Source: an uncultured Rikenellaceae bacterium
GTDB taxonomy: Bacteria > Bacteroidota > Bacteroidia > Bacteroidales > VadinHA17
NCBI GenBank assembly: GCA_964595725.1
Contig: CAZQRQ010000007.1
Span: 6,039 to 70,038 of the forward strand
Length of the DNA: 64,000 nucleotides
Reading direction: 5' to 3'
In this document: one piece after another, positions 5,988-62,844 of the stretch
Position numbering within the stretch: position 1 is the first letter of the stretch
Layout: every line of letters starts with the position of its first letter
The notes under the pieces: generated by a model
Told to the model about the DNA's origin: nothing
Database searches by the model: none
The model's input: only the letters and a program-made list of their open reading frames with translations
Program-made: the position numbers and the translations under genes

Positions 5988-6821
5988 TTATTGTTTTATG
6001 GCACTCCACTTGACTGTTCCATTCCCGGTTGCAACTGTACCCTCCATCCTGTTGCCTTTTACAACACCTTTGTATGGTTCATTCCCGGCTTTGAAGGTAA
6101 TTTCCGCTCCTTTAAGTCTTCCTTCGGAAATGTCCAGCTTTCTGCTACCTGAATTAAGCTCACCCGAAATCATCTGGAATTCCTGGTCCAGTGTAATACT
6201 ACCCCCGTTGGAAAGAGCCCATTTGCCTTCCACCTTTGCCGGTACTATCCAGAGATAGCAGGTATTCCAGCTAGTCGCCATATCATCGATCTCAGCCCTG
6301 GCATCACTCTGCCAGTCCTGCATTGTAAAAGTATTGGAAACGACCCTAGTTCCCGGTTTCATATCGAGAATCTTGGGGCGCAGTCTCATATTGATATCTG
6401 GCAGCAGAAACATAGTGATTACGGTTGCCTTAGAAAAGTCGTACTCAAACAGGTCTGTCTCCAGGAACTGTGCCATTTTCGATACTCCTGCCTCTTCAGC
6501 ATTTTTCCTGGAGAGATCCACCATATTGGGATTATATTCTATGCCAATTGCATGGACACCACGCTTTGCAGCTGTTATTACCGTCCTCCCGTCTCCGGAT
6601 CCCAGGTCAATAAGAAAATCCTTTGGTGTGACCTGTGCGAGATCAAGCATTTTTTCCACGAGTGCCTGTGGAGTTGGCACCCAGACAACATCTTTACCTT
6701 CCTGACCCACTTCGGGCTGGAAACCGGGATTTTGCACTCTTTCCTGGGAAGAGAGAGTGACAGAACTCATGGCTAGGATTAAAACTACCATGAAGCGGAA
6801 CGTATGCTTATTTGTTTCCAT
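5988..6821 (-). CDS. Class I SAM-dependent methyltransferase-like protein with an N-terminal signal peptide and an extra C-terminal domain
   Basis: 277 aa. The signal-like N-terminus is FRFMVVLILAMSSVTLSSQE. SAM-binding motif I is FLIDLGSGDGRTVITAAKRG. Confidence 0.7.
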   Translation of the reverse strand: METNKHTFRFMVVLILAMSSVTLSSQERVQNPGFQPEVGQEGKDVVWVPTPQALVEKMLDLAQVTPKDFLIDLGSGDGRTVITAAKRGVHAIGIEYNPNMVDLSRKNAEEAGVSKMAQFLETDLFEYDFSKATVITMFLLPDINMRLRPKILDMKPGTRVVSNTFTMQDWQSDARAEIDDMATSWNTCYLWIVPAKVEGKWALSNGGSITLDQEFQMISGELNSGSRKLDISEGRLKGAEITFKAGNEPYKGVVKGNRMEGTVATGNGTVKWSAIKQ

Positions 6822-47428: not shown

Positions 47429-50146
47429 ATGAAAGATAAGCCTTTATCCAAAGGTGTTACCAGGCGGCACTTTGTAAAAGTATCCGGTATTACGGCATTG
47501 GGATTTTCTTCAATAGGTATTGCCGGTTGCTCATCAAGCGGAGTTGCAATAGTGCAAATTCCTGATGACCCGGCTGCCATTTCTCCTGTTGTAGAATGGG
47601 CAGCAAATGAATTAGTTAAAGCTCTCCTCTCGAAGGGCATAAGGGTGCATAAATTCAGCCGGATACCGGAGGAGAAAGGTTTTGACATGTGTATTTTAAT
47701 TGCGGGTTCAGATTCCATGGTTGCCTCGGAATTACTGAAATCTGTAAATGTATCAGTCCACGAATTGCCTGAAGCTATTGGATTGGTTCCAGCCGGTACT
47801 CCTGACCAGCAGATACTTCTAGCAACAGGATATGATATCCGGGGGCTGATGTATGCAGTCCTTGAACTTACAGACAGGGTTATTTACTCGACACATCCGG
47901 TTGAAGCCCTGACCATTGATCAACCTGTTATTGAGAAACCAGCAAACCGGGTCAGAGGCATAAACAGGCTTTTTGTCAGCGACATTGAGGATAAGGGCTG
48001 GTTTAATGACAGGGAAATGTGGCCGGAGTATCTTACAATGCTGGCAACGCAAAGGTTTAACCGTTTCAGTCTGAGTTTTGGAATTGGTTATGATTTTCTG
48101 CAGGATGTCACCGATGCGTATTTCCTGTTTGCATACCCGTTCTTTTTATCAGTACCGGGGTATGATGTGAGAGTTCCGGAATTACCGGATATAGAGCGTG
48201 ATCAAAACCTGGATATGCTCCGGTTCATAAGTGATCAGACTGCAGCAAGGGGATTGCATTTCCAGCTGGGTATATGGATGCATGGCTATAAATGGCTTAA
48301 CAGCCCGAATCCGAATTATACCATCGAAGGATTGACTCAGGATAACCATGCTGCATACTGCCGTGATGCTGTGCGTGAACTTCTTGTTAGGTGCCCTTCG
48401 ATTAGCGGAATTACTTTCCGGATACATGGAGAAAGCGGAGTAACAGAAGGCAGTTACAATTTCTGGATGACAATATTTGAAGGAGTGGCCACCTGTGGAC
48501 GTAAGGTCGAAATCGATATGCACGCCAAGGGAATGAGCCCTGCAATGATCGAGACAGCTTTATCCACAGGTGTGCCGGTAAACATCTCGCCGAAATACTG
48601 GGCAGAGCACCTGGGTCTGCCATATCACCAGGCTGATATCAGATCGTTGGAAATACCGAGAGCGAATATAGGGGGAAGAGGATTGATGAATCTGAGCGCA
48701 GGATCAAGAAGCTTTACCCGTTACGGTTATGCTGATCTGTTTAAAGAGAACAGGGAATATGGTGTTATCCACCGTATATGGCCCGGCACTCAGCGCCTGC
48801 TTCTCTGGGGAGACCCCCTTTTAAGTGCAGCTCATTCCAGGGCGTTCAGCTTTTGTGGAAGTGCCGGGGCTGACCTTATGGAGCCTTTGTCGTTCAAGGG
48901 ACGTCGTGGATCAGGAATTGCCGGGGGACGTTGCGGTTATCTGGACGAATCTCTGAAACCACGCTGGGACTGGCAAAAATATCTTTACAGTCTGAGGGTT
49001 TTTGGACGACTTGCATATAATCCTGAAACTGATCCCGATGTCTGGCAGCGTTATTTAAGAACAGAATTCGGGCAGGCATCAGAAGATGTTGAAAAAGCAC
49101 TGGCTAATGCAACAGGGATATTGCCCGTAGTGCTGACTGTACATGGTGCATCGGCTGCAAATAATATGTACTGGCCTGAAATGTATACAAACATGTCAAT
49201 TGCTGATCCCCAGTATAAGAATCCCTATTCTGACACACCCTCTCCAAAAGTATTCGGTAATGTAAGCCCTATGGATCCGCAGTTATTCCTTTCAGTTAAT
49301 GAATTTGCCAGGGAGCTTATTAACCGGTCACGAAGCGGAAAGTACTCACCCGTTGATGCTGCACAATGGATAGAAGACTATTCTGATGCAGCTGAAGGAT
49401 TCCTTGAGAGTGCAAAAACCAGTAATCATGATATTGGGAAACCTGAATTTCGACGATTGGTAACTGATATAGGTATTCTGATCGGTCTTGGACGATTCTT
49501 TTCCGCCAAGCTGCGTGCAGGTGTATTGTTCGGAATTTATGAGCAGACTGGAAACAGAACAGCACTCGAAAAGTCTCTTCAGTATTACAGGAAAGCCCGC
49601 GATACATGGGATGAGTTCTCATCGGAAGCGGTACCTGTATATAAAAGCGATATAACAATAGGAGAAAATCCTGAGATACGAGGGCATTGGCGCGACAGGT
49701 TACAAGCCATAGATGATGACATTGCTATTATTTCCGGATTGCTGGAAAAAGTTAAGGATAAACAGAATGATCCGGAAGGTAAAATTATGACGGCCATTGA
49801 GGAAGCATCAGGAAGGCCTGTAAGGTTATCGGGATCCGTTAACCATGTTCCTGCTGAACGGTTTACACCAGGTAATCCGATGACGCTGAAATTATCGACT
49901 GGCCGTAAACCATCTGCGGTTCTATTACATTACCGTCATGTTAACCATGCCGAAAGATTCAGAACAGCGGGGATGATAGCAGATGGGATTACATTCCAGG
50001 CAACAATTCCCGGATCATATACTGATACAGAATACCCGATACAATACTATTTTGAATTCACAGAAAAACCGGGGAATGCCTGGTTATTCCCTGGATTCAA
50101 TCCGGATCTGGCCAGCCAGCCATATTATGTTGTGCGTAGTGTTTAG
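47429..50146 (+). CDS. Large exported protein of unknown function, possibly glycoside-hydrolase-like (TAT/lipoprotein leader)
   Basis: 905 aa. The leader is TRRHFVKVSGITALGFSSIGIAGCSS. The N-terminal GYDIRGLMYAVLEL and RVRGINR... pattern is reminiscent of GH20b/GH67N-type N-domains followed by a barrel. It shows distant by-eye similarity to ORF 59423-61747. Confidence 0.35.
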   Translation: MKDKPLSKGVTRRHFVKVSGITALGFSSIGIAGCSSSGVAIVQIPDDPAAISPVVEWAANELVKALLSKGIRVHKFSRIPEEKGFDMCILIAGSDSMVASELLKSVNVSVHELPEAIGLVPAGTPDQQILLATGYDIRGLMYAVLELTDRVIYSTHPVEALTIDQPVIEKPANRVRGINRLFVSDIEDKGWFNDREMWPEYLTMLATQRFNRFSLSFGIGYDFLQDVTDAYFLFAYPFFLSVPGYDVRVPELPDIERDQNLDMLRFISDQTAARGLHFQLGIWMHGYKWLNSPNPNYTIEGLTQDNHAAYCRDAVRELLVRCPSISGITFRIHGESGVTEGSYNFWMTIFEGVATCGRKVEIDMHAKGMSPAMIETALSTGVPVNISPKYWAEHLGLPYHQADIRSLEIPRANIGGRGLMNLSAGSRSFTRYGYADLFKENREYGVIHRIWPGTQRLLLWGDPLLSAAHSRAFSFCGSAGADLMEPLSFKGRRGSGIAGGRCGYLDESLKPRWDWQKYLYSLRVFGRLAYNPETDPDVWQRYLRTEFGQASEDVEKALANATGILPVVLTVHGASAANNMYWPEMYTNMSIADPQYKNPYSDTPSPKVFGNVSPMDPQLFLSVNEFARELINRSRSGKYSPVDAAQWIEDYSDAAEGFLESAKTSNHDIGKPEFRRLVTDIGILIGLGRFFSAKLRAGVLFGIYEQTGNRTALEKSLQYYRKARDTWDEFSSEAVPVYKSDITIGENPEIRGHWRDRLQAIDDDIAIISGLLEKVKDKQNDPEGKIMTAIEEASGRPVRLSGSVNHVPAERFTPGNPMTLKLSTGRKPSAVLLHYRHVNHAERFRTAGMIADGITFQATIPGSYTDTEYPIQYYFEFTEKPGNAWLFPGFNPDLASQPYYVVRSV

Positions 50147-52750: not shown

Positions 52751-52803
52751 TTTTATAAATATAGGGTGAAAATTAATTATTGAAGCCATTGGTACAAGAC
52801 ATT

Positions 52804-52900
52804 TTATTTACCTAATTGAGGGTCATAAAACCTTGCACCATAATCGTACCAGTAGGAGTTGTTACTGCTGACTGATAATATGTTATGCTGATTTTGGAAC
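52804..52900 (-). pseudogene. Rhs/YD core-junction stub (junction 1), truncated right after the junction
   Basis: The minus-strand frame reads ...[32 protein letters not shown] with the stop at comp(52804-52806). No toxin domain follows. Confidence 0.7.
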
Positions 52901-53096
52901 AATTTTCTTGGCGATATTATGGTAATTTGAAGCTTTGAAAACAGATCTATCAACTTTATCAATATGAAAATTAATGTTTTTGTGGGATTTTGAATACTTA
53001 ACTATTAAAATAACTGAGGCATTCCATGTTGGTATTTCTCATGATGATCTTATAGCTGAGATTTTTGTTATTCTTTAAAGTAGGAGTATCTTTGTA
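52821..53096. repeat. Copy A of a ~276-bp repeat (junction stub plus promoter region); copy B is at 57191-57466
   Basis: It aligns collinearly by eye with copy B. Most positions are identical, with scattered substitutions and small indels. Confidence 0.8.
53087..53094 (+). promoter_or_regulatory. Candidate Bacteroidota -7 box TATCTTTG (TAnnTTTG) for the ParE-type TA operon
   Basis: It lies at the conserved end of repeat copy A. A TTTG sits at 53064-53067, 19 nt upstream, and the antitoxin ATG is 43 nt downstream. Copy B has the same spacing. Confidence 0.5.
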
Positions 53097-53137
53097 CAAG
53101 AGGACAAGCTTGTGGATCTCGTTTAGTTCAGCTGAAT

Positions 53138-53314
53138 ATGAAAACAAAAAATATAAAATCAAAAGAAAAAGAAAATTGGGCGTTACCAGGCAATCCTATT
53201 TCCCATAATGAATTCAAGAGTGGGATTAAAAAAGCAGAGGAAGGTCCATTTTATACTGTGGAGGAGTCAAAAAACATGCTCGAAGAATGGAGGAAGAAAA
53301 AAAGCTCCGTGTAA
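53138..53314 (+). CDS. Putative antitoxin (58 aa, below the ORF-track size cutoff)
   Basis: My translation is MKTKNIKSKEKENWALPGNPISHNEFKSGIKKAEEGPFYTVEESKNMLEEWRKKKSSV*. It sits immediately upstream of the ParE-like ORF and overlaps it by 28 nt. Confidence 0.5.
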   Translation: MKTKNIKSKEKENWALPGNPISHNEFKSGIKKAEEGPFYTVEESKNMLEEWRKKKSSV

Positions 53315-53622
53315 AAGTATCCAAATCATTTATCATTGATCTTGATAGCATTTTTCAATATGGCGTAGAGACCTTTGGCCTCCGGCAGACTCAACTTTAT
53401 GAGAATGAGATCTGGAAGCTGGTGGACGGACTTTCAAGCAATTGGCAACTCTTTTCTGAGTGCCGTCATCTGTCAACAAAGTCGAAGATGTACAGATGGA
53501 TTATACTGGAATCTCACCTTATCATTTATCGTATCACAGTCAAAGAAATACAGGTACTTCGGATACTGCATTCTAACCGCAGCATAACAAAAATAAAGGC
53601 TTCGAGAGGGGTAAAACCATAG
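53287..53622 (+). CDS. Type II toxin, RelE/ParE superfamily (ParE-like)
   Basis: 111 aa. Segments LRVKVSKSFIIDLDSIFQYG and YRWIILESHLIIYRITVKEIQVLRILHSNRS are typical of the ParE_toxin family. Confidence 0.7.
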   Translation: MEEEKKLRVKVSKSFIIDLDSIFQYGVETFGLRQTQLYENEIWKLVDGLSSNWQLFSECRHLSTKSKMYRWIILESHLIIYRITVKEIQVLRILHSNRSITKIKASRGVKP

Positions 53623-53735
53623 AATAAAGATTCATATGAGAACAAGAGGATCCATTCATGCAAGGCTGGGAAAGAACCAATTTATCGATAAATTCGGCAA
53701 CCGGATTGTTCACGCTCAAAAAAAACAATAAAATA

Positions 53736-53765
53736 AAAACCCGGCGTCGAACCGGGTTTCTTGTT
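53736..53765. terminator. Hairpin terminator between the convergent ParE gene and immunity/toxin cassette 2
   Basis: AAAACCCGG-CGTCGA-ACCGGGTTT followed by CTTGTT. A-rich sequence upstream could make it bidirectional. Confidence 0.55.
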
Positions 53766-53804
53766 ACGTTACCTATTGGAAAAATCACTAATTCAAAACA
53801 AAAC

Positions 53805-54008
53805 CTAATTCTTTGATCTAATATTATCCAAAGAGTCTTTGTAAGCTTTGATCAACAGTTTGGTCGAGTCACGATAATAAGAATATTCTTTATATATTTC
53901 TTCAGTGTAGATTATTTGCCTTTTGTTTTCAATGTTTTTAAGGAAGACAAATATTAATAACACTATAATTATCAGAGTAATAAATACAGATTTAATTATC
54001 TTTTTCAT
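53805..54008 (-). CDS. Candidate immunity protein for cassette 2 (N-terminal TM anchor)
   Basis: 67 aa beginning MKKIIKSVFITLIIIVLLIFVFL... It starts 5 nt after the stop of the toxin ORF on the same strand. Confidence 0.45.
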   Translation of the reverse strand: MKKIIKSVFITLIIIVLLIFVFLKNIENKRQIIYTEEIYKEYSYYRDSTKLLIKAYKDSLDNIRSKN

Positions 54009-54013
54009 TCCAT

Positions 54014-54769
54014 TTATTTTCGTTTATTATCATTTTGATTTTTCAGAATAAGTTGAAGCGTTCCTTCTTGGAGTAATTCGCTTGAAGTAGTAAATGGTCC
54101 GTGTATTTGACTTCCAATAGTCATAAAGAAATTTAATGGGGCACTAAGGAGTGCATTTAGAATCCGCATCGGTTCGCTATATGCAAATCTTTCCCCAGCT
54201 GTATTTAAAACAGGGTGAGATCTAATTACATCATACCTGTTTTTACTAAATTCAGGTGCATGTGCGAAAACCATATATTCCCACTTTTTACTATAGAACT
54301 TCTTATCTTCAAGTTCTGCATTATTCACAATAATGTCTGCAGCTTCTTGTTTAAACACGTTGACGTCAGTCATAGCATTGCCTTCATAGTCTAAAAATGT
54401 ACTTACAGTTGGGGTTTCACCTATATTTTTACCTCCCGCAGAAGTGTTGTTCTTCCCGTAATTCTTCAGTACTACCTTGCTTGCTCTTTTTTCGTTGCCT
54501 TTATGTTTATAAATGGTTTTATCTCCATCATCATATACAGCAACAATTTTCCCCTTCTTACTTGTATGAGTTGACATTCCATTTGCATCGATGAAAATTA
54601 TTGGATTATCAATCGTATAATTATAAGGAGACCATCTATAATACTTCTCCGCCATCGGATCCACCACATGCCATCTCCCGATCTGCGGATCATAAAACCT
54701 TGCGCCGTAATCGTACCAGTAACCAGAGTTACTTTTGATTGATAGTATGTTACCCTGTCTTTGAAGCAA
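54014..54769 (-). CDS. Orphan Rhs-junction C-terminal toxin module (cassette 2), toxin domain of unknown type
   Basis: The peptide reads ...[59 protein letters not shown] followed by about 185 aa of unique sequence. The frame opens only 8 codons upstream, after TAA at comp(54794-54796). There is no ATG before the junction. Confidence 0.7.
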
Positions 54770-54915
54770 GTTTTTAACGGTTTTTGGGCTACTTTACCTT
54801 CCGAAATTGCTATTTATACTCTATTCAGGTATGAAAATAAGGAAATAATGACGATTTATTGGTGATTTTACAATGGGATTTAATAGTCAGTAAGATTATA
54901 TGGGATTTGTAGTGA

Positions 54916-55461
54916 TTATTTATCCTTTCGGGAAGGCTTGAATCCTTTTACCTGGACAGGCTTTTTGGTGTCGTGCTTCTCTATCAGCTCATCGAGGTAG
55001 CTGAAGACAAGTTCTATGTTTTTGTCCTGGTTGGTGAGTTTCTTTTTAATTTCTTCAATTTCAAGTCGTATACTCATGTTATCCATTAGGATCTCCCGCA
55101 CCTTGGTGAATACTCGCATGATCTGGATATTAACCTTTATGGCTCTCTCACTGTTCAACACCCCTGATAACATTGCTACACCTTGCTCGGTAAACGCATA
55201 TGGCAGTTTTCGACGACCACCCCAGCTTGATGTTCCAGTTTGGAATATCAAGACTTCGAACTCTGCCTTTGTCAACTGGAACATAAAATCTTCCGGGAAG
55301 CGGTCTAGGTTACGCTTTACCTGTTCATTTAATCTGCGGGTTTCAACATCATATAGTTCTGCCAGGTCTTCATCAAGCATCACTTTTTTATCTCTTATGA
55401 GGTAGATTTTGCTTGTTATAATTTCATCAGGTACAGCCAGAAGATTACTTCTTTTTGTCAT
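54916..55461 (-). CDS. ORF6N (KilA-N-like) DNA-binding domain protein
   Basis: 181 aa. Motifs are IRDKKVMLDEDLAELYDVETRRLNEQVKRNLDRFPEDFMFQLT and SSWGGRRKLPYAFTEQGVAMLSGVLNSERAIKVNIQIMRVF. Confidence 0.8.
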   Translation of the reverse strand: MTKRSNLLAVPDEIITSKIYLIRDKKVMLDEDLAELYDVETRRLNEQVKRNLDRFPEDFMFQLTKAEFEVLIFQTGTSSWGGRRKLPYAFTEQGVAMLSGVLNSERAIKVNIQIMRVFTKVREILMDNMSIRLEIEEIKKKLTNQDKNIELVFSYLDELIEKHDTKKPVQVKGFKPSRKDK

Positions 55462-55504
55462 TATGAGCTTTGTGTTATGGTTTTGTAAAGTTACTTATTT
55501 AAAC

Positions 55505-55529
55505 TTGATGTCGCATTTTGCGATATCAA
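55505..55529. promoter_or_regulatory. Palindrome 1 upstream of the ORF6N gene (operator candidate)
   Basis: TTGATGTCGCA-TTT-TGCGATATCAA, located 44-68 nt upstream of the ORF6N start codon. Confidence 0.45.
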
Positions 55530-55583
55530 AATTGTATTTAACGGATTGTTGGCATATCGGATTTTACAATTTATGATTTCTTA

Positions 55584-55610
55584 CTTGATATCGCAAAGTG
55601 CGATATCAAG
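55584..55610. promoter_or_regulatory. Palindrome 2 upstream of the ORF6N gene (operator candidate)
   Basis: CTTGATATCGCA-AAG-TGCGATATCAAG is a perfect 12-bp inverted repeat with the same half-site as palindrome 1, 79 bp away. Confidence 0.45.
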
Positions 55611-55743
55611 AATGGTAATGCCATATTAACCACTCTATTATATATTTATCGATGGCGCTGATATATTGGAATCCTTCTAATCCTTCAGGCTGATGGCACG
55701 GTATTGTCCCTCTTGCTGTCTACACTGTAGTCAAACCCCGCTA

Positions 55744-55896
55744 TTACCAGGATTGTTGCAAAACACTTATTGCGTTATTGCAACAGATTTTTACACTTTT
55801 GCATTTAGGATTCCGTATTCTAGATACTCCAGCGAGTGGATTTACAGTAGTAAATCGTCCTATTTGCGGACTATAAGATCTCGCTCCATAATTGTA
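55744..55896 (-). pseudogene. Diverged Rhs-junction remnant (junction 5)
   Basis: Minus strand reads *YNYGARSYSPQIGRFTTVNPLAGVSRIRNPKCKSVKICCNNAISVLQQSW*. It is bounded by TAA at comp(55897-55899) and the stop at comp(55744-55746). Confidence 0.5.
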
Positions 55897-55991
55897 TTAA
55901 TACAAAATCAAAGAACTTATAAATGTAAGACGTTATCATTAATACTAAAATCCAGAAATCCTATTCTAATTTTGTGTGAATGTTTAACAAT

Positions 55992-56566
55992 CTAATAAGG
56001 TATCCAGAAATAGAATTCTAAAATTACTTTATCATATACAACAATTCTAAATTCCCCATTATAAGGACCATACTTATCCTTGATAAGTACTGAATATATT
56101 GAGTACTTTTCCCCAGAAGGTGTATAATTTTTAAATTTAATTTTATAGTGTTTCCTAATGAAATTATTTATCTTATCCCCAACTTTAATCTCAGGAAATA
56201 TTCCAGTTAGACTATTGTCTTGACATGAAAAAGCTTGAACCTCATTATGAACACTTCAAAATATGATTTTGAGTAATATATGTACCTTGAACTATCACTT
56301 GGGATTACCTTACTATAATTACTGATTACAGAATCAGGTTTCCCATTTAGTTTATAAATTACCATTGCCTTATCTCCCAAGTGGATACCAGAGATACAAA
56401 TTCGATCAAAGTTTATGAAATCTTCTTTGTTCTTTTGACTGTAACAAAATTTACAGAAAAGTAATGAAACTACTACTCCTACAAAACAAATTGACCTTAT
56501 GCGCTTTAAGTAATACTCCAAATGTAATCTTAAACCAAATAATATATTATCCCTTTCCTTTTTCAT
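55992..56566 (-). pseudogene. Candidate immunity gene for the M23 toxin, apparently frameshifted
   Basis: The track ORF 56207-56566 (signal-like ICFVGVVVSLLFCKFCYSQ) ends at TAA. A second frame stays open for about 76 codons to comp(55992-55994) with no Met or plausible start (SVHNEVQAFSCQDNSLTGIFPEIKVGDK...FYFWIPY*). An A5/T5 run at 56227-56231 lies in the frame-overlap window. Confidence 0.45.
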
Positions 56567-57167
56567 ACTCAGATTCTTTATTTACTTCTTCTTTTTGTAT
56601 AGATTCTGGTTGTATAGGATTTCCATCAGAATCAAACTTAGTATCCAAATAGTCTTCTGGGTTAGTTTCTGTGGCTTCATCCCAGTTATCAGACTCTCCC
56701 TCTCTCGTAATTATATGTACATGCTCTCGATCTTCTGGTAAACCTTTGGCATTACCAGTCGTACCGGAAACACCAATAATATCTCCTTCATTGACTAACC
56801 CACTCACTGTCGGGATATCTTGTAAATGTGCATACAAGGTAAATAAGTCATTACCAGACTCAAGCTTTGATCTAATAATTAAATAATTTCCTAGTTTGCC
56901 TTCTGTATTTGCTGAGTACACTGTACCACCCTTGATGCTCATTAGATTGGTTCCTTTTAGAGCCTTTATGTCCAATCCATTATGATGCCTGCCTCGTGCG
57001 TCTCCCCATCTTCCTCCAGCTATATTATTGTTCTCTGTTGGACATATCCGGGGGTTCTTTACAGGATCACCAGAGACAAGACCAGCTATATCAATAAATA
57101 GGATGGGATTGTTAAATGTATATGCGTACGGGCTATAATTATTCATTTTTTCAGCTAATGGATCCAC
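56547..57167 (-). CDS. Orphan Rhs-junction C-terminal toxin module (cassette 3) with an M23 (LytM-type) peptidase domain
   Basis: The junction reads [58 protein letters not shown], with TGA at comp(57219-57221) where other copies have the Trp codon. M23 motifs are [20 protein letters not shown] and EHVHI. Confidence 0.75.
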
Positions 57168-57190
57168 CGAATTCCACCTCCCGATCTGCG

Positions 57191-57466
57191 GGTCATAGAA
57201 TCTTGCTCCGTAATCATATCAGTGACTAGGATGACCGTTGACTGATAATATGTTATACTGATTTTGGAACAATTTTCCTGGCTATATTAAGGTTATTTGA
57301 AGCTTTATAAACAGGTTTATCAACTTATCAGTATGAAAATTAGTGCTTTTTCTGGGATTTTTAATACTTATCTATTGAAATATCTGAGTAATTACTTGTT
57401 GGAATATCTTCTAATGATCCTAGGTTTAAAATTATTGTTATTCTATAAAGTAGGAGTATCTTTGTA
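57191..57466. repeat. Copy B of the ~276-bp repeat (junction stub plus promoter region)
   Basis: See copy A (52821-53096). Confidence 0.8.
57457..57464 (+). promoter_or_regulatory. Candidate Bacteroidota -7 box TATCTTTG for the RelE-type TA operon
   Basis: The octamer and context (AAAGTAGGAGTATCTTTGTA) are identical to copy A. The antitoxin ATG is 43 nt downstream. Confidence 0.5.
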
Positions 57467-57507
57467 TTGCCTGGGAAACTAGTACTTGGAGTAATGAAAG
57501 AACTAAA

Positions 57508-57702
57508 ATGGAAGAGAACTATGTGATTGATAAAAGTGGCCGCAAAATAGCCGTTCAGGTTCCAATTAAGACCTATAAAAAACTAGTAGCGGATTCTGAA
57601 GAACTGGATGAAATAAAGGAATACCGTAAGGCCAAAACCCATAAGAGCGATCCTATACCCTTTAAACAGGCTTTCAACGAGATTGAAGAAGCTACAAAAT
57701 GA
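57508..57702 (+). CDS. Type II antitoxin (partner of the RelE-like toxin)
   Basis: 64 aa, acidic C-terminus. It overlaps the toxin start by 4 nt (ATGA). Confidence 0.65.
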   Translation: MEENYVIDKSGRKIAVQVPIKTYKKLVADSEELDEIKEYRKAKTHKSDPIPFKQAFNEIEEATK

Positions 57703-57953
57703 GGTATACCATTTTTATTGAACGTTATGCCCAAAAGCAAATCTTAAGGCTTGACAGAAAAGTAATACCTATTATTAAATCAGCCATTGCAGGTCTTGCT
57801 GATAACCCCAGACCACAGGGATATAAAAAACTCAAAGGTGAAGATGCTTACCGTATCCGGGTAGGTGATTACCGGGTTATCTATGAGATTGATGATGACA
57901 GGATAATCATTGTTGTAGTATCTGTTGGACACAGGAAAGACATTTATAAATAA
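57699..57953 (+). CDS. relE: Type II toxin, RelE/ParE family (RelE/StbE-like mRNA interferase)
   Basis: 84 aa with the motif YRIRVGDYRVIYEIDDDRIIIVVVSVGHRKDIY. Confidence 0.8.
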   Translation: MRYTIFIERYAQKQILRLDRKVIPIIKSAIAGLADNPRPQGYKKLKGEDAYRIRVGDYRVIYEIDDDRIIIVVVSVGHRKDIYK

Positions 57954-57954
57954 A

Positions 57955-57985
57955 AAGCCCGGCTTTTAAACCGGGTTTTATGTTT
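57955..57985. terminator. Hairpin terminator between the convergent RelE gene and immunity/toxin cassette 4
   Basis: AAAGCCCGG-CTTTTAAA-CCGGGTTTTATGTTT, the same CCCGG/CCGGG stem type as at 53736. Confidence 0.55.
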
Positions 57986-58009
57986 CTGTTCATTTTATTC
58001 CAAGGTTGG

Positions 58010-58201
58010 CTAAAATACTATCAAGACTACAACTCCCAATATGATTACAACTGTAGCCACTCCAATAATGTAGTTCTCCGTGTCATAGGTTCCGCCCAAG
58101 ACCGCATTGAAGTTCCCTTCGACTTCATCTTGTAAACGTGTTTTGCAACCTTTTAATAACCATCGGATAAAACCACCTATCCATCTTGCTGTTTCTGGCA
58201 T
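58010..58201 (-). CDS. Candidate immunity protein for cassette 4 (C-terminal TM anchor)
   Basis: 63 aa ending ...NYIIGVATVVIILGVVVLIVF. It starts 5 nt after the toxin stop on the same strand. Confidence 0.45.
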   Translation of the reverse strand: MPETARWIGGFIRWLLKGCKTRLQDEVEGNFNAVLGGTYDTENYIIGVATVVIILGVVVLIVF

Positions 58202-58206
58202 AACTT

Positions 58207-59043
58207 TTACTTTTCTAATTCCTTCTTAGTTGCGGTTCCAATATTTAACACATTTCTGACTATATCTAATTCTTTCAGACCTTGCTGATTAACTTTATTC
58301 GTTTGAAATAGTTTTCCTGCTCTTTGCTGCCATTTCATGCCAGTTGGCAATCCTTTTGTGGCAGTGATCCCCGGGGTATTGTTAACAAACTGATTAAATC
58401 CCTGTAGTCCTTCATTGGATGTTTTAACTACCTGCCCTGTCGTGGTTAATCCTCCTGATATTAATGCCGGAACTACGTCAATAAAAGCATCCATCTTTTT
58501 GTCCGCATTTGCTGGAGTTCCACCCAGGGATTTTCCAGTTAATAAAGTTACAGGTGAATTAACTATTGAATAACCAATAATAGCTGCAACTTTTAAAGAC
58601 CCTTCTCCAAACGAACCTGATGGAGAGTCAAGCCAATTTTTAAAAGCAGATAATGTACCTGATTTATTAATTTCTCCTGAACCAGTACTATTTATCAATT
58701 CTGGCCCAAAGTAAGATGTTTTGGCAAGGTTAAATGTTTCCTTATTATCCGTGAATTTCATCCATAGCTTACTGTCATTTACAATCAGGTCAGCAGTTTC
58801 ATTATCAAACCATTTATATTCACCAGATACGCTTTGATATCTATCAACTCCCATTCCATCAGGGTCAATAAATCTCATAGGATTATCTACAGTGTAGTTA
58901 TATGGCGACCACCTTCTGTACTTTTCAGCTAATGGATCCACCGCATTCCACCTCCCTATCTGTGGATCGTAAAACCTTGCACCGTAATCGTACCAACTAA
59001 AAGGGAAATTTTCAGATGAGATAATATCTTCCTTTATTTGCAT
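58207..59043 (-). CDS. Orphan Rhs-junction C-terminal toxin module (cassette 4), toxin domain of unknown type
   Basis: The peptide is [64 protein letters not shown] followed by about 210 aa of unique Gly/Ser/Thr-rich sequence. Its ATG is immediately preceded by an in-frame TAA at comp(59044-59046). Confidence 0.7.
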
Positions 59044-59131
59044 TTAACCCAAAGTATAAGTCCACTTTAGAAATTGATTACTCCAAGACATTTTTGAATG
59101 ATCTGTGAGGAGAACAAAACTTATGAAACAA

Positions 59132-59368
59132 CTAAAGTAAAGCAGATACAGAAATATCTTCGTCTATACTCTTCCAGTGAATCCCAACACCATTACCAAT
59201 AAGTCTCCAATCCTTAAGCTGGTCTTCGCTGGCTTTTCTTAGTCTTGGGAACCATAATAATGGAACACCGATTTCTCGCCCATCCTGTAATTGAACATAG
59301 AGCATGTCCTTTGTGAACCACACTTTTGAAGCGAGGGCATTTACTTGTTTATTGGCTAAAGTGCTCAT
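59132..59368 (-). CDS. DUF2442 domain protein
   Basis: 78 aa with the motif LYVQLQDGREIGVPLLWFPRLRKASEDQLKDWRLIGNGVGIHWKSIDEDISVSALL. Confidence 0.75.
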   Translation of the reverse strand: MSTLANKQVNALASKVWFTKDMLYVQLQDGREIGVPLLWFPRLRKASEDQLKDWRLIGNGVGIHWKSIDEDISVSALL

Positions 59369-59422
59369 TCCATTTATCTCTTATTAACACCTCATTCTTC
59401 TTAGTAATTTATTTAATATCAA

Positions 59423-61747
59423 TTATTTCCTAAAGGTGGCCTCAGTACTGGTTTTCTTTGAATATCCCTTTATTTCACCCGGCTTCCAATCTCTTGCCAT
59501 CTGGATGTCGTTATCGACTTTTTCAGTTAGTAAAGGGATGTTCACATAGCCAACCCTGTTATAGATAGCAGGTTTATATTTTGAATCATACAATTCTGCA
59601 TATTTTATCCAGTAAGTTTTTGCCCGTGTAAGATGGTCAATTGCTTCTTCTTTGTCCTGCTCCAGCCCGTAAAAATTGTAAAGTGCCAGGGAGCATGCGC
59701 CCCTGATCTTTTCTGCATAGTAGAATCCTATGGCAGCAAACGCCTCGATATCACCAAGTGTCTGACCAAGTTCAGTTTCCGTTCCCTGTTTCGATGGAAG
59801 AAGTTTTTGCAGACCGATCATTGAGAGCCTGGCATATTTTGAAATTGTATCTGCAACTGCAGTGGGAGGTAAAAGGGTGGCGGACTTATTTTCACCATAG
59901 TATTGTGCCCACTGGGTGATGTTCTGAATATTGCTCCCTGCAACCGGATCGACTTCCATGAAATCCCTGACGGTATAAAAACCCTTATACCAGGAGGGAT
60001 TACTGTAGCAGGCTTCGGGGAACCATTTAAGATCGATGTCACCCCATACCAGCCTTGTTGTCCATGGAAAAATCATTGAGGCATCTGACCAGGTCTTCAT
60101 AAGGATATCGGGTGAAACTGAGGGAAAGTGAGAAGCCAGGGTCTGCCTGAAAAGCTCATCCTGCAAACCAGGGTCATAGCTCAGCCGTCCCCAGAGCATG
60201 AAGGAATACCACTGCTTCTGTATTATCAGTGATCCGGAAAGGGTTTGTCCCCGTGTCAGGAAATCTTTCCCCCAGCAGTATCCGTCAGGACCCATATAAA
60301 ATCCTGATATCTTATCAACGGACGGGATATTCATAATATATTCCCTGGCATATCGGGGATTACCCCAGCGGAAACTATATACATCATCATTTCTTACGGT
60401 CAGCCATGTCTTCTGTCCGGCAGGAAGAGCTTCAAATGCAGTATTGCTGAAAGGCGGATTGGTTATGGAATACATGTGGGCGATGGAATACTTTATACTC
60501 AGGTCCATAGTTCCGGGGTAATCCCTAAACTCGTTCAGGATCTCGGTCATTCCGGTCTGGTGAAACCTGTGTATGAGCCTGAATTTTCTGTCCGGCTGTT
60601 TCCGAAGAGCATCTCTTATTCCCTCACCATAAGTTTTCCACAGCCATTGTTCATTGGTATACTTTTCGTTTCTGCCACCCATGTTTTCTCCAGCTGTGAT
60701 ACCAAAACCGGCCAGAAGAGGATAGGTAAGTACCATCTCCCTCATAGATGCCCTGAAATATGCTATTGTTGTGTCATTGCTGCGGTTGCTTGTTATCCCG
60801 TACTTTCCCTGTTCCCCGTATGTGAAAATGTTCCATGTGAAGAAATAGACTTCTATGCCTCGGTCATTTGCATATTCCATTACCTTTCTCCAGAATCCTA
60901 TTTTTTCCTTGATTGTTATTTTCTTAACAATCTCATGATTATCAAGCAATTCTGGATTCAGGTTCCCGGTGCCGGTTGTTGAATAAGTATTGTCAATATC
61001 TGCTGTAGTTTTCCAGACATCATCCAGTGCGACTTCGGGGTATTCTGGAACCTTTACCAGTGACGGGAAAGGATTCAGGCTCCATAAAGTAATTACATTA
61101 TATCGGTTCCTGGCCATCTCATCAAATTGCTGTTTCCAGAAATCCATATCCCAGACAACGGGAATATTCTGCTGGAAAGCATCAGACAGGTCTGAATAAC
61201 TGGGTGTCCTCAGATCGAGCGGGATGTTGAATTTGATGCCCCTTCGTTCGAGATATGGCTTGTTATCAGACTCAGGGAGAGCATCTATTGTGCCGTTAGT
61301 GATTGCCTCTGCAATATCGAGACAACCATACATTAAACCTGTTTTATCACTGCTCAGGATCCAAAATTCGAGGTTATTTCCTTCTTTTCTCTTCCTGATA
61401 GAATAACATTGCCAGCCTGTATACTCCGGTGGCCTTAATCCCATTTTTTTCAGGGCAGCTAAAGACTGATCTTTTTCAGCGGGAATATTAACAATGATAC
61501 AATTTGAACTGGCTGCCTGCCTGGTACGGCCCCTCATTATTTCTATGCCTCTTTCATCTGACGCCTTTTCCAATTCGCTGATCCCAAAGAGTATTTGCTG
61601 GTCTTTGGATTCTGATAAAAGAATGATTTTATGGTAATTGGAAATTTTCTGTTCCTGGTAGCTAATGGCAGATGAAGAAACACTTTGAGCCGAAAGACTG
61701 TAAACAGCAAACAGCAAGATGACCGGTATATGATATTTAATTTTCAT
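59423..61747 (-). CDS. Large secreted protein of unknown function, possibly glycoside-hydrolase-like
   Basis: The internal ATG at comp 61747 gives a signal peptide (MKIKYHIPVILLFAVYSLSAQS). The N-terminal SSDKTGLMYGCLDIAEAI and ERRGIKFN... pattern is like ORF 47429. The track start 61789 would overlap the upstream DUF362 gene. Confidence 0.35.
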   Translation of the reverse strand: MKIKYHIPVILLFAVYSLSAQSVSSSAISYQEQKISNYHKIILLSESKDQQILFGISELEKASDERGIEIMRGRTRQAASSNCIIVNIPAEKDQSLAALKKMGLRPPEYTGWQCYSIRKRKEGNNLEFWILSSDKTGLMYGCLDIAEAITNGTIDALPESDNKPYLERRGIKFNIPLDLRTPSYSDLSDAFQQNIPVVWDMDFWKQQFDEMARNRYNVITLWSLNPFPSLVKVPEYPEVALDDVWKTTADIDNTYSTTGTGNLNPELLDNHEIVKKITIKEKIGFWRKVMEYANDRGIEVYFFTWNIFTYGEQGKYGITSNRSNDTTIAYFRASMREMVLTYPLLAGFGITAGENMGGRNEKYTNEQWLWKTYGEGIRDALRKQPDRKFRLIHRFHQTGMTEILNEFRDYPGTMDLSIKYSIAHMYSITNPPFSNTAFEALPAGQKTWLTVRNDDVYSFRWGNPRYAREYIMNIPSVDKISGFYMGPDGYCWGKDFLTRGQTLSGSLIIQKQWYSFMLWGRLSYDPGLQDELFRQTLASHFPSVSPDILMKTWSDASMIFPWTTRLVWGDIDLKWFPEACYSNPSWYKGFYTVRDFMEVDPVAGSNIQNITQWAQYYGENKSATLLPPTAVADTISKYARLSMIGLQKLLPSKQGTETELGQTLGDIEAFAAIGFYYAEKIRGACSLALYNFYGLEQDKEEAIDHLTRAKTYWIKYAELYDSKYKPAIYNRVGYVNIPLLTEKVDNDIQMARDWKPGEIKGYSKKTSTEATFRK

Positions 61748-61761
61748 TTGTTGTTCCGGTG

Positions 61762-62844
61762 TTATTGCATTTTTACCGGGTTCTTCCATTCAAGCTGTTC
61801 ATCAATATTTTCGTGCAGCTTATATTTAATTACATGATCATCGGGATTGGCATTTCCTATAATATCTATTTTTGCGCGGTCGGTATTTCCAAATCCTGCG
61901 GCTCCCAGGTAGTTCAGATACCCGACATTCTCCAGGGGTATGCCCATCAGCCTGGCACACATGCTGTCAACGGCCACTACATCTTCGCCTGCAAGGGCTA
62001 TCCTGTGATCGACAGGTGTTCCGCTAACAGGGCCGTTACCTTCCATCCCTTCAACCCCATCGATTATTGTAAAATCCGGTCGCAATTGCTGACCAACCAG
62101 AAATATATTGTAATGTAAAAATCTCTCTCCTCCGGAATGCATCCTGCTTTTGTAATGCTTACCACTGCTCCTGTCGTCAGATATAACCAGTGGTGCTCCC
62201 ATGACTATATTCTTGACCCCTGCCGTCATCACCACACGATTGTGGGTTTTTAGCCGGGATAATGACATGATGTAGTTATTTGGATCAACATAGGTTTTTG
62301 CAACCGGTATCTCCTCCTGGTGAAGGTTGGGATCTATAATGAAGAAAGGTGTCCCATTATCTTTATTAAGGTCTACGAATTTAATATTATAGTCTTTCTG
62401 CAAGTCGAGATACCCGTAATTTTTAAATCCTTCAGCGGAGTCAACCACAGAGCTTGATTCGGCAATGATGATCTGCTTTTTGTAGATAGGCTTCATGTAT
62501 TCGAGCAGGGCACGTATTGCATCGACATGAGTTGCACAAAGAGGTGTACTGGTTGCTACCATATTAACCTTAATGATCAGCTGTTTATCTGTCAATCCTT
62601 TTCTGATCTCTGCTTCAAAAGGTTTAATTACCTCGTAAAGCATCTGCTGCCTTTCGGTTCCGGTAGTGAAGGCAACACTGCTATTACCTCTTGCTAATGG
62701 TATTTTAGGTTCAGGTTTAATGTCTGCAGGCTCTGTAGCCAAAATATCAGAAAATCCGCCTGCCAGCATACCGGCAGCACCAAGTCCAAGCATTTTTAAT
62801 GCGTTGCGTCTCCCAACCGCGAGTTGTTTACCTGATGTTTTCAT
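61762..62844 (-). CDS. DUF362 domain-containing protein with a TAT signal
   Basis: 360 aa. The leader is GRRNALKMLGLGAAGMLAGG. The DUF362 core reads IIKVNMV, LSRLKTHN, IIDGVEGMEGNGPVSGTPVD and VAVDSMCARLMGI. Confidence 0.7.
   Translation of the reverse strand: MKTSGKQLAVGRRNALKMLGLGAAGMLAGGFSDILATEPADIKPEPKIPLARGNSSVAFTTGTERQQMLYEVIKPFEAEIRKGLTDKQLIIKVNMVATSTPLCATHVDAIRALLEYMKPIYKKQIIIAESSSVVDSAEGFKNYGYLDLQKDYNIKFVDLNKDNGTPFFIIDPNLHQEEIPVAKTYVDPNNYIMSLSRLKTHNRVVMTAGVKNIVMGAPLVISDDRSSGKHYKSRMHSGGERFLHYNIFLVGQQLRPDFTIIDGVEGMEGNGPVSGTPVDHRIALAGEDVVAVDSMCARLMGIPLENVGYLNYLGAAGFGNTDRAKIDIIGNANPDDHVIKYKLHENIDEQLEWKNPVKMQ

Follow-up and report, generated by a model that had tools for sequence, protein, structure and literature searches.

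Orphan Rhs toxin tips and candidate immunity genes in a shell-less, low-GC island of an uncultured Rikenellaceae bacterium

A toxin of the Rhs/TcC class must be enclosed in a shell and exported with it, which raises the question of what toxin tips are doing in a locus that has no shell. Such a locus lies in the 64-kb stretch of DNA analysed here (64,000 nucleotides, henceforth the window; positions 6,039 to 70,038 of contig CAZQRQ010000007.1, GenBank assembly GCA_964595725.1, from an uncultured Rikenellaceae bacterium of the Bacteroidota). In an island of ~6.7 kb within this window (52.75-59.42 kb), the Rhs core junction, the point at which the shell passes into the variable toxin, occurs five times. 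Three copies open an intact cassette, made of a toxin open reading frame (ORF; CT1, CT2 and CT3) and a candidate immunity gene, and the other two belong to decayed cassettes. We consider it likely that the island consists of horizontally acquired, partly decayed orphan cassettes of Rhs tips and immunity genes, held as a store that the locus itself cannot deliver.

Five core junctions without a shell

The initial annotation of the sequence had read the same peptide five times on the minus strand. Indeed, five minus-strand copies of Y(D/N)YGAR(F/S)Y(D/S)PQ(I/L)G are found where it had placed them, with YDYGAR starting at 52848, 54715, 55896, 57218 and 58992, and a back-translated DNA pattern (TAYGGNGCNMGNNNNTAYNNNCCNCAR) has exactly five sites in the 64 kb, all of them in the island, against 0.00 expected from 100 shuffles. 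Scored with the TIGR03696 model (Rhs_assc_core, cut-off 32.5 bits), the three intact cassettes reach 44.6 (CT1), 46.1 (CT2) and 47.3 bits (CT3), and the matches are confined, as had been predicted, to the last ~50 of the 76 model positions (27-76, 31-76 and 29-76, respectively); the two remaining copies, a stub and a diverged junction, retain too little or too degraded sequence for a score. When profiles were built from the CT3 and CT1 families, this stretch aligned with the very C-terminus of TcC/Rhs shells of solved structure, such as YenC2 (residues 608-690 of a 690-residue shell construct) and TccC3, and the junction therefore contains the RxYDP…DPxG(L/M) self-cleavage region, in the variants DANGM (CT1), DIAGL (CT2) and DPDGM (CT3). 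Each cassette keeps only the last ~50 shell residues, followed by the toxin domain and a small membrane-anchored ORF. The reading frames close 0, 0, 17, 26 and 51 codons upstream of the five junctions, a wider spread than the 10-30 codons first estimated, and the junction copies are 67-80% identical to each other, with longest exact matches of 14-22 nt.

No shell accompanies these junctions. A tblastn search with five full-length shells recovered the junctions only and no YD shell from the 64 kb, RHS_repeat had no match in the window and no ORF there exceeds 905 residues, in agreement with the earlier statement that YD repeats and a secretion-associated N-terminus are missing. DUF6443 was seen only in full-length genes of other loci. 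Because Rhs/TcC tips need the shell for encapsulation and export, no toxin should be deliverable from this locus.

Could the shell be missing from the assembly instead, through collapsed repeats or mis-joined contigs? Junction repeats do break short-read assemblies, and two of three independent contigs of this locus, from two JGI samples (3300077105 and 3300031354), end just upstream of J1, the CT1 junction, at 54845 (L171) and 54841 (L172). These ends fit such breakage, and metagenomes probably hold arrays of this type in under-assembled form. Against an artefact, the third contig (L167), which comes from another assembly, covers 58440-60347 of the window at 99.8% identity and runs across CT3, a DUF2442 gene and the gene for a 788-residue protein, so that these two genes occupy the place upstream of 59043 where a contiguous shell gene would have made the locus an ordinary rhs tail. 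L171 (54845-56036, 99.8% identity) crosses an ORF6N gene, two palindromes and the degenerate junction, and L172 (54841-55861) is 100% identical to the window. This independent confirmation covers two stretches; the left edge, from the epimerase gene to the J0 stub, is not among them. Since the independent contigs are 99.8-100% identical and include the edge from the 788-residue protein gene through DUF2442 to CT3, we conclude that the absence of the shell does not stem from assembly. A shell-less design is seen, moreover, in three separate assemblies of another locus (L168, L169 and L170, see below), and we regard the artefact as largely refuted and next to inconceivable.

According to the initial annotation, each toxin is followed by a small ORF on the same strand, and all three such ORFs proved to have one strongly hydrophobic segment. 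CT1 (54014-54769, minus strand, 251 residues) opens with junction J1 (54575-54715), has a possible TTG start and ends in a toxin domain without a recognised fold; its candidate immunity protein, imm1 (53805-54008, minus strand), has 67 residues and an N-terminal transmembrane segment. The closest CT1 homologue, P0122, is followed by a 71-residue ORF, an agreement in position only. In CT2 (56547-57218, minus strand) the junction J2 lies behind an in-frame stop, and the earliest start codon, a GTG, comes at 57167. Its toxin is an M23 peptidase, as had been proposed (PF01551, E 4.8e-15), with intact HxxxD and HxH motifs. The candidate immunity protein imm2 (56207-56566, minus strand, 119 residues) has a hydrophobic, export-type N-terminus and overlaps the end of CT2 by 20 nt; no imm2 homologue was found beside the M23 cassette of L168. 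CT3 (58207-59043, minus strand, 278 residues) starts with an ATG, contains junction J3 and has a toxin domain that is rich in helices but without a recognised fold; it is followed by imm3 (58010-58201, minus strand), a candidate immunity protein of 63 residues with a C-terminal transmembrane segment. CT3 homologues occur in four other contexts (L081, L082, L083/84 and L085/86), each time followed by a 63-64-residue ORF that is 43-64% identical to imm3.

For the activity of the CT1 and CT3 toxin domains, Pfam, PADLOC and PHROGs gave no match, and PADLOC matched none of the toxin or immunity ORFs. AlphaFold2 models were too poor for a fold search (mean predicted local distance difference test score 57.5 for CT3 and 50.8 for CT1), and sequence profiles against PDB matched the junction only and not the toxin domain of either protein. 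The DNA of the closest homologues compared is at most 68% identical, such that synonymous sites would be saturated. After the cleavage motif, CT1 has a beta-rich 'pre-toxin' segment (residues ~66-110, 54560-54450; STHT(D/S)…G..(V/I)AVYDDGD..(V/I)Y.H.G) that is common to many otherwise different tips (P0124-P0141), in matches that cover 43-63% of CT1. This segment may be a shared linker or translocation module.

The two decayed copies hold no such cassette. The J0 stub (52751-52848, minus strand) is a decayed Rhs core end followed by point-mutated junction sequence that reaches the stop codon of the aldose epimerase gene, and the degenerate junction YNYGARSYSPQIGRFTTVNPLAG (55807-55896, minus strand) has stops on both sides and retains neither a toxin nor an immunity gene; it is present in L171 (99.8% identity) and L172 (100%) as well. 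A common crossover point at the junction stubs was considered and rejected: the stubs of the window and of L168 break at different positions, and J0 is a point-mutated junction without a clean cut.

If these are Rhs tips, the same toxins should be found on complete Rhs proteins. Among the metagenome loci described below, the long junction-bearing ORFs have 1,157-1,200 residues, N-termini resembling signal peptides, DUF6443 and RHS repeats, an architecture that NCBI annotates on Bacteroidota plasmids as 'DUF6443 domain-containing protein'. At the level of domain architecture, the parent family is shown to be a Bacteroidota protein of ~1,200 residues with a signal peptide, DUF6443, a YD/RHS shell, the core junction and a variable toxin. 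The CT3 toxin domain is C-terminal every time in 99 clusters at 50% identity, and a toxin of this type, at 56% identity, ends a 2,075-residue BACON/Ig/DUF6443/RHS protein (P0221); two contig-end fragments, P0017 and P0020, have genuine shell sequence upstream of a CT3-type toxin. In L116, the M23-type tip of a full-length gene can be aligned with CT2 at 43% identity over 114 residues including the junction. Since the same toxins sit on full-length RHS proteins, the tips in the window are real Rhs toxin tips. Carriage by phages or plasmids was considered and dropped: searches for the Rhs junction in plasmids and phages gave junction-level matches only, in 23 Bacteroidota plasmid records and one phage record, and just 15 loci are present among 2.9 million viral contigs.

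Setting and companion genes of the island

The GC content of the island is 35.4%, against 43.7% in the left flank and 43.4% in the right flank, so that the AT-richness first judged by eye is borne out by computation. Its surroundings are ordinary genes of carbohydrate metabolism (Aldose_epim, GH8, DUF362 and others); a convergent gene for aldose 1-epimerase borders it on the left, and the gene for a large exported protein of 788 residues (59423-61789) on the right. The earlier description of convergent core-type flanks thus stands for the galM-like gene, which encodes the epimerase; the other flank, then called GH-like, encodes the exported 788-residue protein, which has no Pfam match. Both ends of the island are cut elements, the J0 stub on the left and, on the right, the 3' remnant of a DUF4160 gene (59352-59420, minus strand, …EVLIRDKWNEHFSQ-stop), which is cut at the stop codon of the 788-residue protein gene. 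Because both edges cut through elements, the island should be a fragment of something larger, and the low GC content, the cut edges and the housekeeping flanks together argue for a foreign origin. No tRNA gene lies near the island, no integrase is present in it (as the initial annotation had said) or in seven flanking genes, and tblastn with two tyrosine recombinases gave no match across the 64 kb. A synteny comparison from the epimerase gene to the 788-residue protein gene was uninformative: in the closest genomes of the GTDB set the epimerase is only 75% identical, and the GH8 gene is the only neighbour shared.

Read 5' to 3' on the minus strand, the island comprises the DUF4160 remnant, DUF2442, J3-CT3, imm3, a hairpin, a RelB-like/RelE pair on the opposite strand, the leader U2, J2-CT2, imm2, the degenerate junction, two palindromes, ORF6N, J1-CT1, imm1, a further hairpin, a ParE-family pair on the opposite strand, the leader U0 and the J0 stub. 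The interleaving of ORF6N, DUF2442 and toxin-antitoxin (TA) genes had been recognised at the outset, and matches to ORF6N, DUF2442, RelE, ParE_toxin and a RelB-like antitoxin confirm it. TA module 1 (53138-53622, plus strand) joins a putative 58-residue antitoxin (53138-53314), for which no family match was obtained, to a 111-residue toxin of the ParE family (53287-53622; PF05016, 36.9 bits against a cut-off of 23). TA module 2 (57508-57953, plus strand) joins a RelB-like antitoxin (57508-57702; PF18506, 29.2 bits against 27) to a RelE/StbE toxin (57699-57953; TIGR02385, 29.5 bits against 27.9). Antitoxin and toxin genes overlap by 28 nt in module 1 and by 4 nt in module 2, and judged by family and arrangement both pairs fit the gene layout of type II TA systems (ParE-type and RelBE).

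The ORF6N/KilA-N-type gene (54916-55461, minus strand; PF10543, E 5.5e-36) lies directly upstream of CT1. Its product matches PADLOC PDC-S05 (E 8.5e-68, profile positions 7-169 of 177), a candidate single-gene phage defence family to which a match does not imply activity, and it also matches phage anti-repressor PHROGs. Two operator-like palindromes with 12-bp arms (CTTGATATCGCA-N3-TGCGATATCAAG; 55504-55529 and 55585-55610) sit ahead of ORF6N, at 42 and 122 nt from its start codon, and there is a weaker third copy at 55225-55256. In L085 a different palindrome, with 14-bp arms, lies upstream of that locus's own ORF6N gene. DUF2442 (59132-59368, minus strand; PF10387) stands directly upstream of CT3.

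Upstream of J0 and J2 lie two copies of a non-coding repeat, the leaders U0 (52849-53096, minus strand) and U2 (57219-57466, minus strand, 248 nt). Taken with their junctions, U0+J0 and U2+J2 (57169-57466) form a direct repeat of ~300 nt, 4,370 bp apart and 81-88% identical. A match to a Bacteroidetes-type promoter (TTTG-N19-TATCTTTG; 53064-53094, plus strand; a pattern match only) lies inside U0, 44 nt before the start codon of TA1, and the same -7 box, TATCTTTG, is found at 57457-57464 (match 57434-57464), 44 nt before the start codon of TA2; this outward-facing TA promoter match is the sole feature that we could assign to U. The TA1 and TA2 operons are non-homologous yet stand behind the same ~300-nt repeat, and it looks as if TA coding regions had been swapped behind a conserved promoter. 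Two other explanations of the leader were rejected. It does not behave as a structured RNA, since its fold is no better than that of shuffles (z-scores 0.68 and -0.76) and Rfam gave no match better than E 0.2, nor as a decayed shell tail, since the translated leaders reach no more than 2.1 bits, like shuffles, against a hidden Markov model built from 47 shell tails.

A scan for sigma-70 promoters gave 25 sites against 29.2 in shuffles, no excess. Terminator-like hairpins were found after imm1 (53735-53761, minus strand) and, in bidirectional form, between the TA2 toxin gene and imm3 (57954-57979). By contrast, terminator-like sites were found neither in the ORF6N-CT1 interval nor, on the minus strand, in that from the 788-residue protein gene to CT3. 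Because no such site separates their genes on the minus strand, two transcription units are predicted, ORF6N-CT1-imm1 and (788-residue protein gene)-DUF2442-CT3-imm3, which would end at the two hairpins.

Exported proteins of 905 residues (47429-50146) and 788 residues (59423-61789) flank the region, neither with a Pfam match, and both match one and the same ORF of L010 at 21-25% identity. The two could be distant paralogues within an uncharacterised family, probably one related to glycans.

Orphan cassettes in other metagenome loci

Is the window an isolated case? A junction scan of metagenome contigs yielded 80 loci with 92 junctions, 73 of them clear of contig ends. The upstream ORF has at least 300 residues at 25 of these 73 junctions and fewer than 300 at the other 48, with fewer than 40 codons at 24 of the latter; about two-thirds of the sampled junctions are thus orphan, and ~85% of the short-leader orphans in the sample keep a full-length toxin of ~220-290 residues. 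Shells were looked for at those short-leader junctions whose contig extends at least 5 kb further upstream. Five of them stand behind a shell gene (L146, L124, L154, L113 and L139; the shell ORF of L139 is broken, which suggests a pseudogene), five loci have no shell at all (L162, L121, L109, L150 and L089) and two have short remnants only (L100 and L126), such that roughly half of the assessable junctions are shell-less upstream.

A second island of the same kind spans 5700-10650 of L168-170, three assemblies of one locus from an uncultured bacterium (one of them NCBI GCA_022703405.1). It too is low in GC (34.9% against 44.3% and 42.9%), has housekeeping flanks and lacks a shell, and it contains a divergent ParE pair, two junction-toxin-immunity cassettes (one with an M23 toxin), an MNT/HEPN pair and two junction stubs. 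It differs from the window island in its insertion site and its immunity genes, and has neither ORF6N nor DUF2442; no description of it was found in the literature searched.

The companion genes recur as well. In L089, RelBE and DUF4160/DUF2442 modules that are 76-79% identical in nucleotide sequence to those of the window (RelBE, 76%) occupy the same positions relative to the junctions, including the order DUF2442-then-junction, whereas the toxins differ. On the P0122 contig a RelB/ParE pair lies divergently upstream of the CT1-like cassette. ORF6N stands directly upstream of an orphan junction, on the same strand, in all eight independent loci that carry the gene (the window, L083, L085, L095, L105, L121, L128 and L158), with an in-frame fusion of the two in L121. 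In a crude census, 12 of 36 orphan junctions have a TA, ORF6N, DUF2442, helix-turn-helix (HTH) or integrase-type gene no more than 1.5 kb upstream, and none of 18 full-length genes does (one-sided Fisher p = 0.0036). The interleaving had seemed an oddity of this locus; because these genes recur beside orphan junctions across loci, we conclude instead that they are the normal company of such cassettes.

The sampled orphans are of two kinds. In the first, a variable shell tail is kept (YYPFG…NKYLYNGKELQ), which is what simple displacement would leave. In the second, to which the orphans of the window belong, a stop-ridden leader that is not shell sequence meets the junction ~10 codons before WYDYGAR. 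A non-coding leader of ~170 nt with the core AAAAAGTTCTTTGAAAA precedes eight cassettes on L089 (797-964, 2849-3017 and 5083-5251), L101 (2861-3022) and L121 (4048-4215, 6257-6427, 7265-7429 and 9406-9577), with nhmmer E-values of 1e-24 to 1e-40; a derivation of these copies from shell sequence is not detectable. Leaders are conserved within lineages, and similarity between lineages is not significant. One universal leader element was accordingly rejected: the L089/L101/L121 leader does not match the U repeat of the window, the L168 leader matches at E 0.08 only, and a likeness seen by eye in MAFFT alignments had no statistical support.

Tyrosine recombinases occur near orphan cassettes in L085 (4203-8871, two in tandem), L128 (2916-6160), L124, L154 and L163, a set in which an HTH gene and a ~920-residue primase also adjoin the cassettes; in L124 and L154 the first orphan is separated by an integrase from its full-length rhs gene. 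These neighbours hint that some cassettes may ride on integrative elements. In L081 (1-17732; ENA ERZ21831104, ctg89650c) a unit of 3,967 bp is repeated ~4.5 times at 99.7% identity and consists of a Y1-transposase-N/HicB-like gene, an antitoxin gene with ParE, a CT3-like orphan (60% amino acid identity) and a 63-residue immunity gene. Either a tandem amplification of the cassette or a small circle assembled as a concatemer would account for it.

A store, a reservoir or wreckage

The locus had been thought impossible to map to a described system, a claim that goes too far. Orphan rhs-CT/immunity modules are defined as a 5'-truncated core 3' end with an alternative tip and its own immunity gene (PMC4436062, PMC3967940, 10.1101/2025.05.08.652813), and by sequence features the window cassettes agree with this definition in all but their position. 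As in the orphan rhs-CT/rhsI modules of Enterobacteria, they keep the core end up to the DPxGL-type motif, the toxin tip and an immunity candidate, and lack the N-terminal trafficking region. The published orphans (Salmonella LT2 rhs-orphan, Dickeya rhsC o1/o2 and Serratia) follow directly downstream of a full-length rhs/immunity pair and are cargo of a type VI secretion system (T6SS). In the window, by contrast, there is no rhs gene in 64 kb, DUF2442 and the 788-residue protein gene lie upstream of CT3, the parent family is a Sec-signal DUF6443-RHS protein, and the cassettes alternate with TA, ORF6N and DUF2442 genes. Standalone toxin cassettes with immunity genes are reported to outnumber active toxins by a median of ~3:1 and to diversify toxins by recombination (Zhang et al., 2012; PMC3482391); the parts of that study consulted treat them as 'associated with' polymorphic toxin loci and hold no shell-less islands interleaved with TA and ORF6N genes. 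Orphan cdiA-CT/cdiI and mafB-CT/mafI arrays are likewise promoterless tip/immunity modules that have a short junction in common with a full-length gene (PMC4436062), but their toxin families, junction motifs (VENN in CdiA) and delivery routes are other than those of the window, and these arrays normally retain the full-length gene.

By analogy, the nearest idea in function is that of the acquired interbacterial defence (AID) clusters of gut Bacteroidales, low-GC clusters of orphan immunity genes away from delivery genes, of which AID-1 also holds pseudogenised remnants (10.1101/471110, PMC12247911). The recombinase-associated form, rAID-1, takes its definition from a XerD-like recombinase at the 5' end, at least two co-oriented genes of GC no higher than 41% downstream of it, and conserved intergenic motifs (10.1101/471110). 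Like AID-1/2 and rAID-1, the window island is low in GC, is apparently acquired and has immunity candidates away from a delivery gene. Unlike rAID-1, it has no XerD-like recombinase and keeps intact toxin domains beside the immunity candidates. Its GC content of 35.4% lies below the 41% limit, and its genes point in both directions, the minus-strand cassettes one way and the two plus-strand TA modules the other. As for integrons or CALIN elements, neither a recurrent inverted repeat at cassette boundaries nor an integrase was found; no dedicated attC model was run. In the literature searched, nothing links ORF6N to Rhs orphans in this sense, and DUF6443 is not mentioned.

Under our favoured reading, that of an undeliverable store, the immunity genes would be kept for protection from Rhs toxins of the same type made by neighbours. 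The toxin parts would be silent or harmlessly neutralised passengers, reusable only through junction recombination with a full-length DUF6443-Rhs gene elsewhere. The ParE, RelBE and DUF4160/DUF2442 modules and ORF6N would be cargo of a mobile element or 'conflict island' that probably brought the cassettes in and stabilises them, and these interleaved modules may supply cassette transcription. Several points weigh against this reading: expression, toxicity and protection are all inferred; the assignment of imm2 relies on position and an export-type N-terminus; the island has no mobility gene, so that the route of acquisition is read from related loci only; no Bacteroidetes -7 box (TAnnTTTG) lies on the minus strand upstream of any junction; and CT1 and CT3 are intact ORFs with possible starts (TTG and ATG, respectively), neither of which a store of immunity alone would need.

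Among the competing explanations, the island may be inert wreckage of an old rhs locus or mobile element, kept only since the TA modules make its loss costly, as the cut elements at both edges, the degenerate junction with nothing behind it, the stop at the CT2 junction and the absence of mobility genes from the island and of promoter matches upstream of the cassettes would suggest. Pure decay is hard to square, however, with the intact state of CT1 and CT3, of the catalytic motifs of the M23 peptidase and of every one of the three small ORFs, with a CT3/imm3 pair kept across distant loci at 43-64% identity without frameshifts, with terminator-like hairpins exactly after imm1 and imm3, and with contigs 99.8-100% identical to the window from two JGI samples; we hold wreckage to be possible but not probable. 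Alternatively, the cassettes could be an active silent library whose tips are copied at the junction into a distant full-length DUF6443-Rhs gene, much as pilS feeds pilE. The three toxin ORFs are intact and have ~140 nt of conserved junction at each 5' end, most short-leader orphans in the sample retain their toxin in full, the same toxin families occur on full-length proteins, and recombination between orphan and main rhs has been shown in Salmonella (PMC3967940). That precedent concerns an adjacent orphan, however, and here the partner gene is absent from the 64 kb, the exact runs of 14-22 nt within junctions of 67-80% identity offer homologous recombination little to work on, a 3' block of homology is not evident and two of the five cassettes have decayed, CT2 itself having a stop at its junction. 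We therefore find such a library rather doubtful.

In further accounts, the cassettes work or move by other means. We think it unlikely that shell-less Bacteroidota cassettes are, beyond debris, distinct mobile and self-stabilising toxin-tip/immunity islands, in which small integrative elements would carry junction-toxin-immunity units along with addiction modules and a regulator of the ORF6N (PDC-S05) type, and in which the ORF6N or DUF2442 genes upstream, or a shared leader, would drive cassette expression; this idea draws on the integrase and primase neighbours in L085 and L128 and on the 3,967-bp repeat in L081. There is a slight chance that the pairs, perhaps with ORF6N, work within the producing cell, for addiction or for abortive infection against phages, rather than as weapons between bacteria. 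The strong PDC-S05 match of ORF6N and its place before the orphan cassette in all eight loci speak for such a role, as do the possible starts of CT1 and CT3 and the TA modules nearby, but the cytoplasm holds no target for an M23 peptidoglycan hydrolase, the useless shell fragment is retained, many such orphans lack a start codon, and PDC-S05 is only a candidate with a single-gene definition in a locus whose toxin and immunity ORFs have no PADLOC match. A recombinase-driven array with site-specific cassette capture, rAID-1-like or integron-like, appears very improbable to us. In its favour are the low GC content, the short genes and the sequence repeated between genes (U0/U2 and the junctions), and tyrosine recombinases lie just upstream of orphan cassettes in L085, L124, L154 and L163; against this, none is present in the island or its seven flanking genes, the two-query tblastn was negative, the genes are not co-oriented, both TA modules being on the opposite strand, the stubs of the window and L168 break at different positions, so that a shared crossover point is lacking, and no hairpin recurs at the cassette boundaries.

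Rhs toxins play a major part in competition between bacteria, and mechanistic work on them has almost all concerned the T6SS-linked Rhs proteins of Proteobacteria with adjacent orphans. Our analysis suggests that in environmental Bacteroidota most Rhs core junctions are orphan, that many of them reside in shell-less, low-GC, TA-stabilised islands and that an ORF6N/PDC-S05 gene is a regular upstream partner of orphan cassettes; the window island appears to be one example of a common but little-described island type in these bacteria. For annotation, this means that short Bacteroidota proteins named 'RHS repeat-associated core domain-containing protein' would usually be undeliverable cassettes rather than effectors. 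If the immunity genes are expressed, 'acquired interbacterial defence' would extend beyond gut Bacteroides and recombinase-linked arrays, and if the toxin tips are re-used, the islands would be a route of horizontal exchange for toxin/immunity pairs. Should the view of mobile islands prove true, ready-made immunity and exchangeable tips would spread between genomes.

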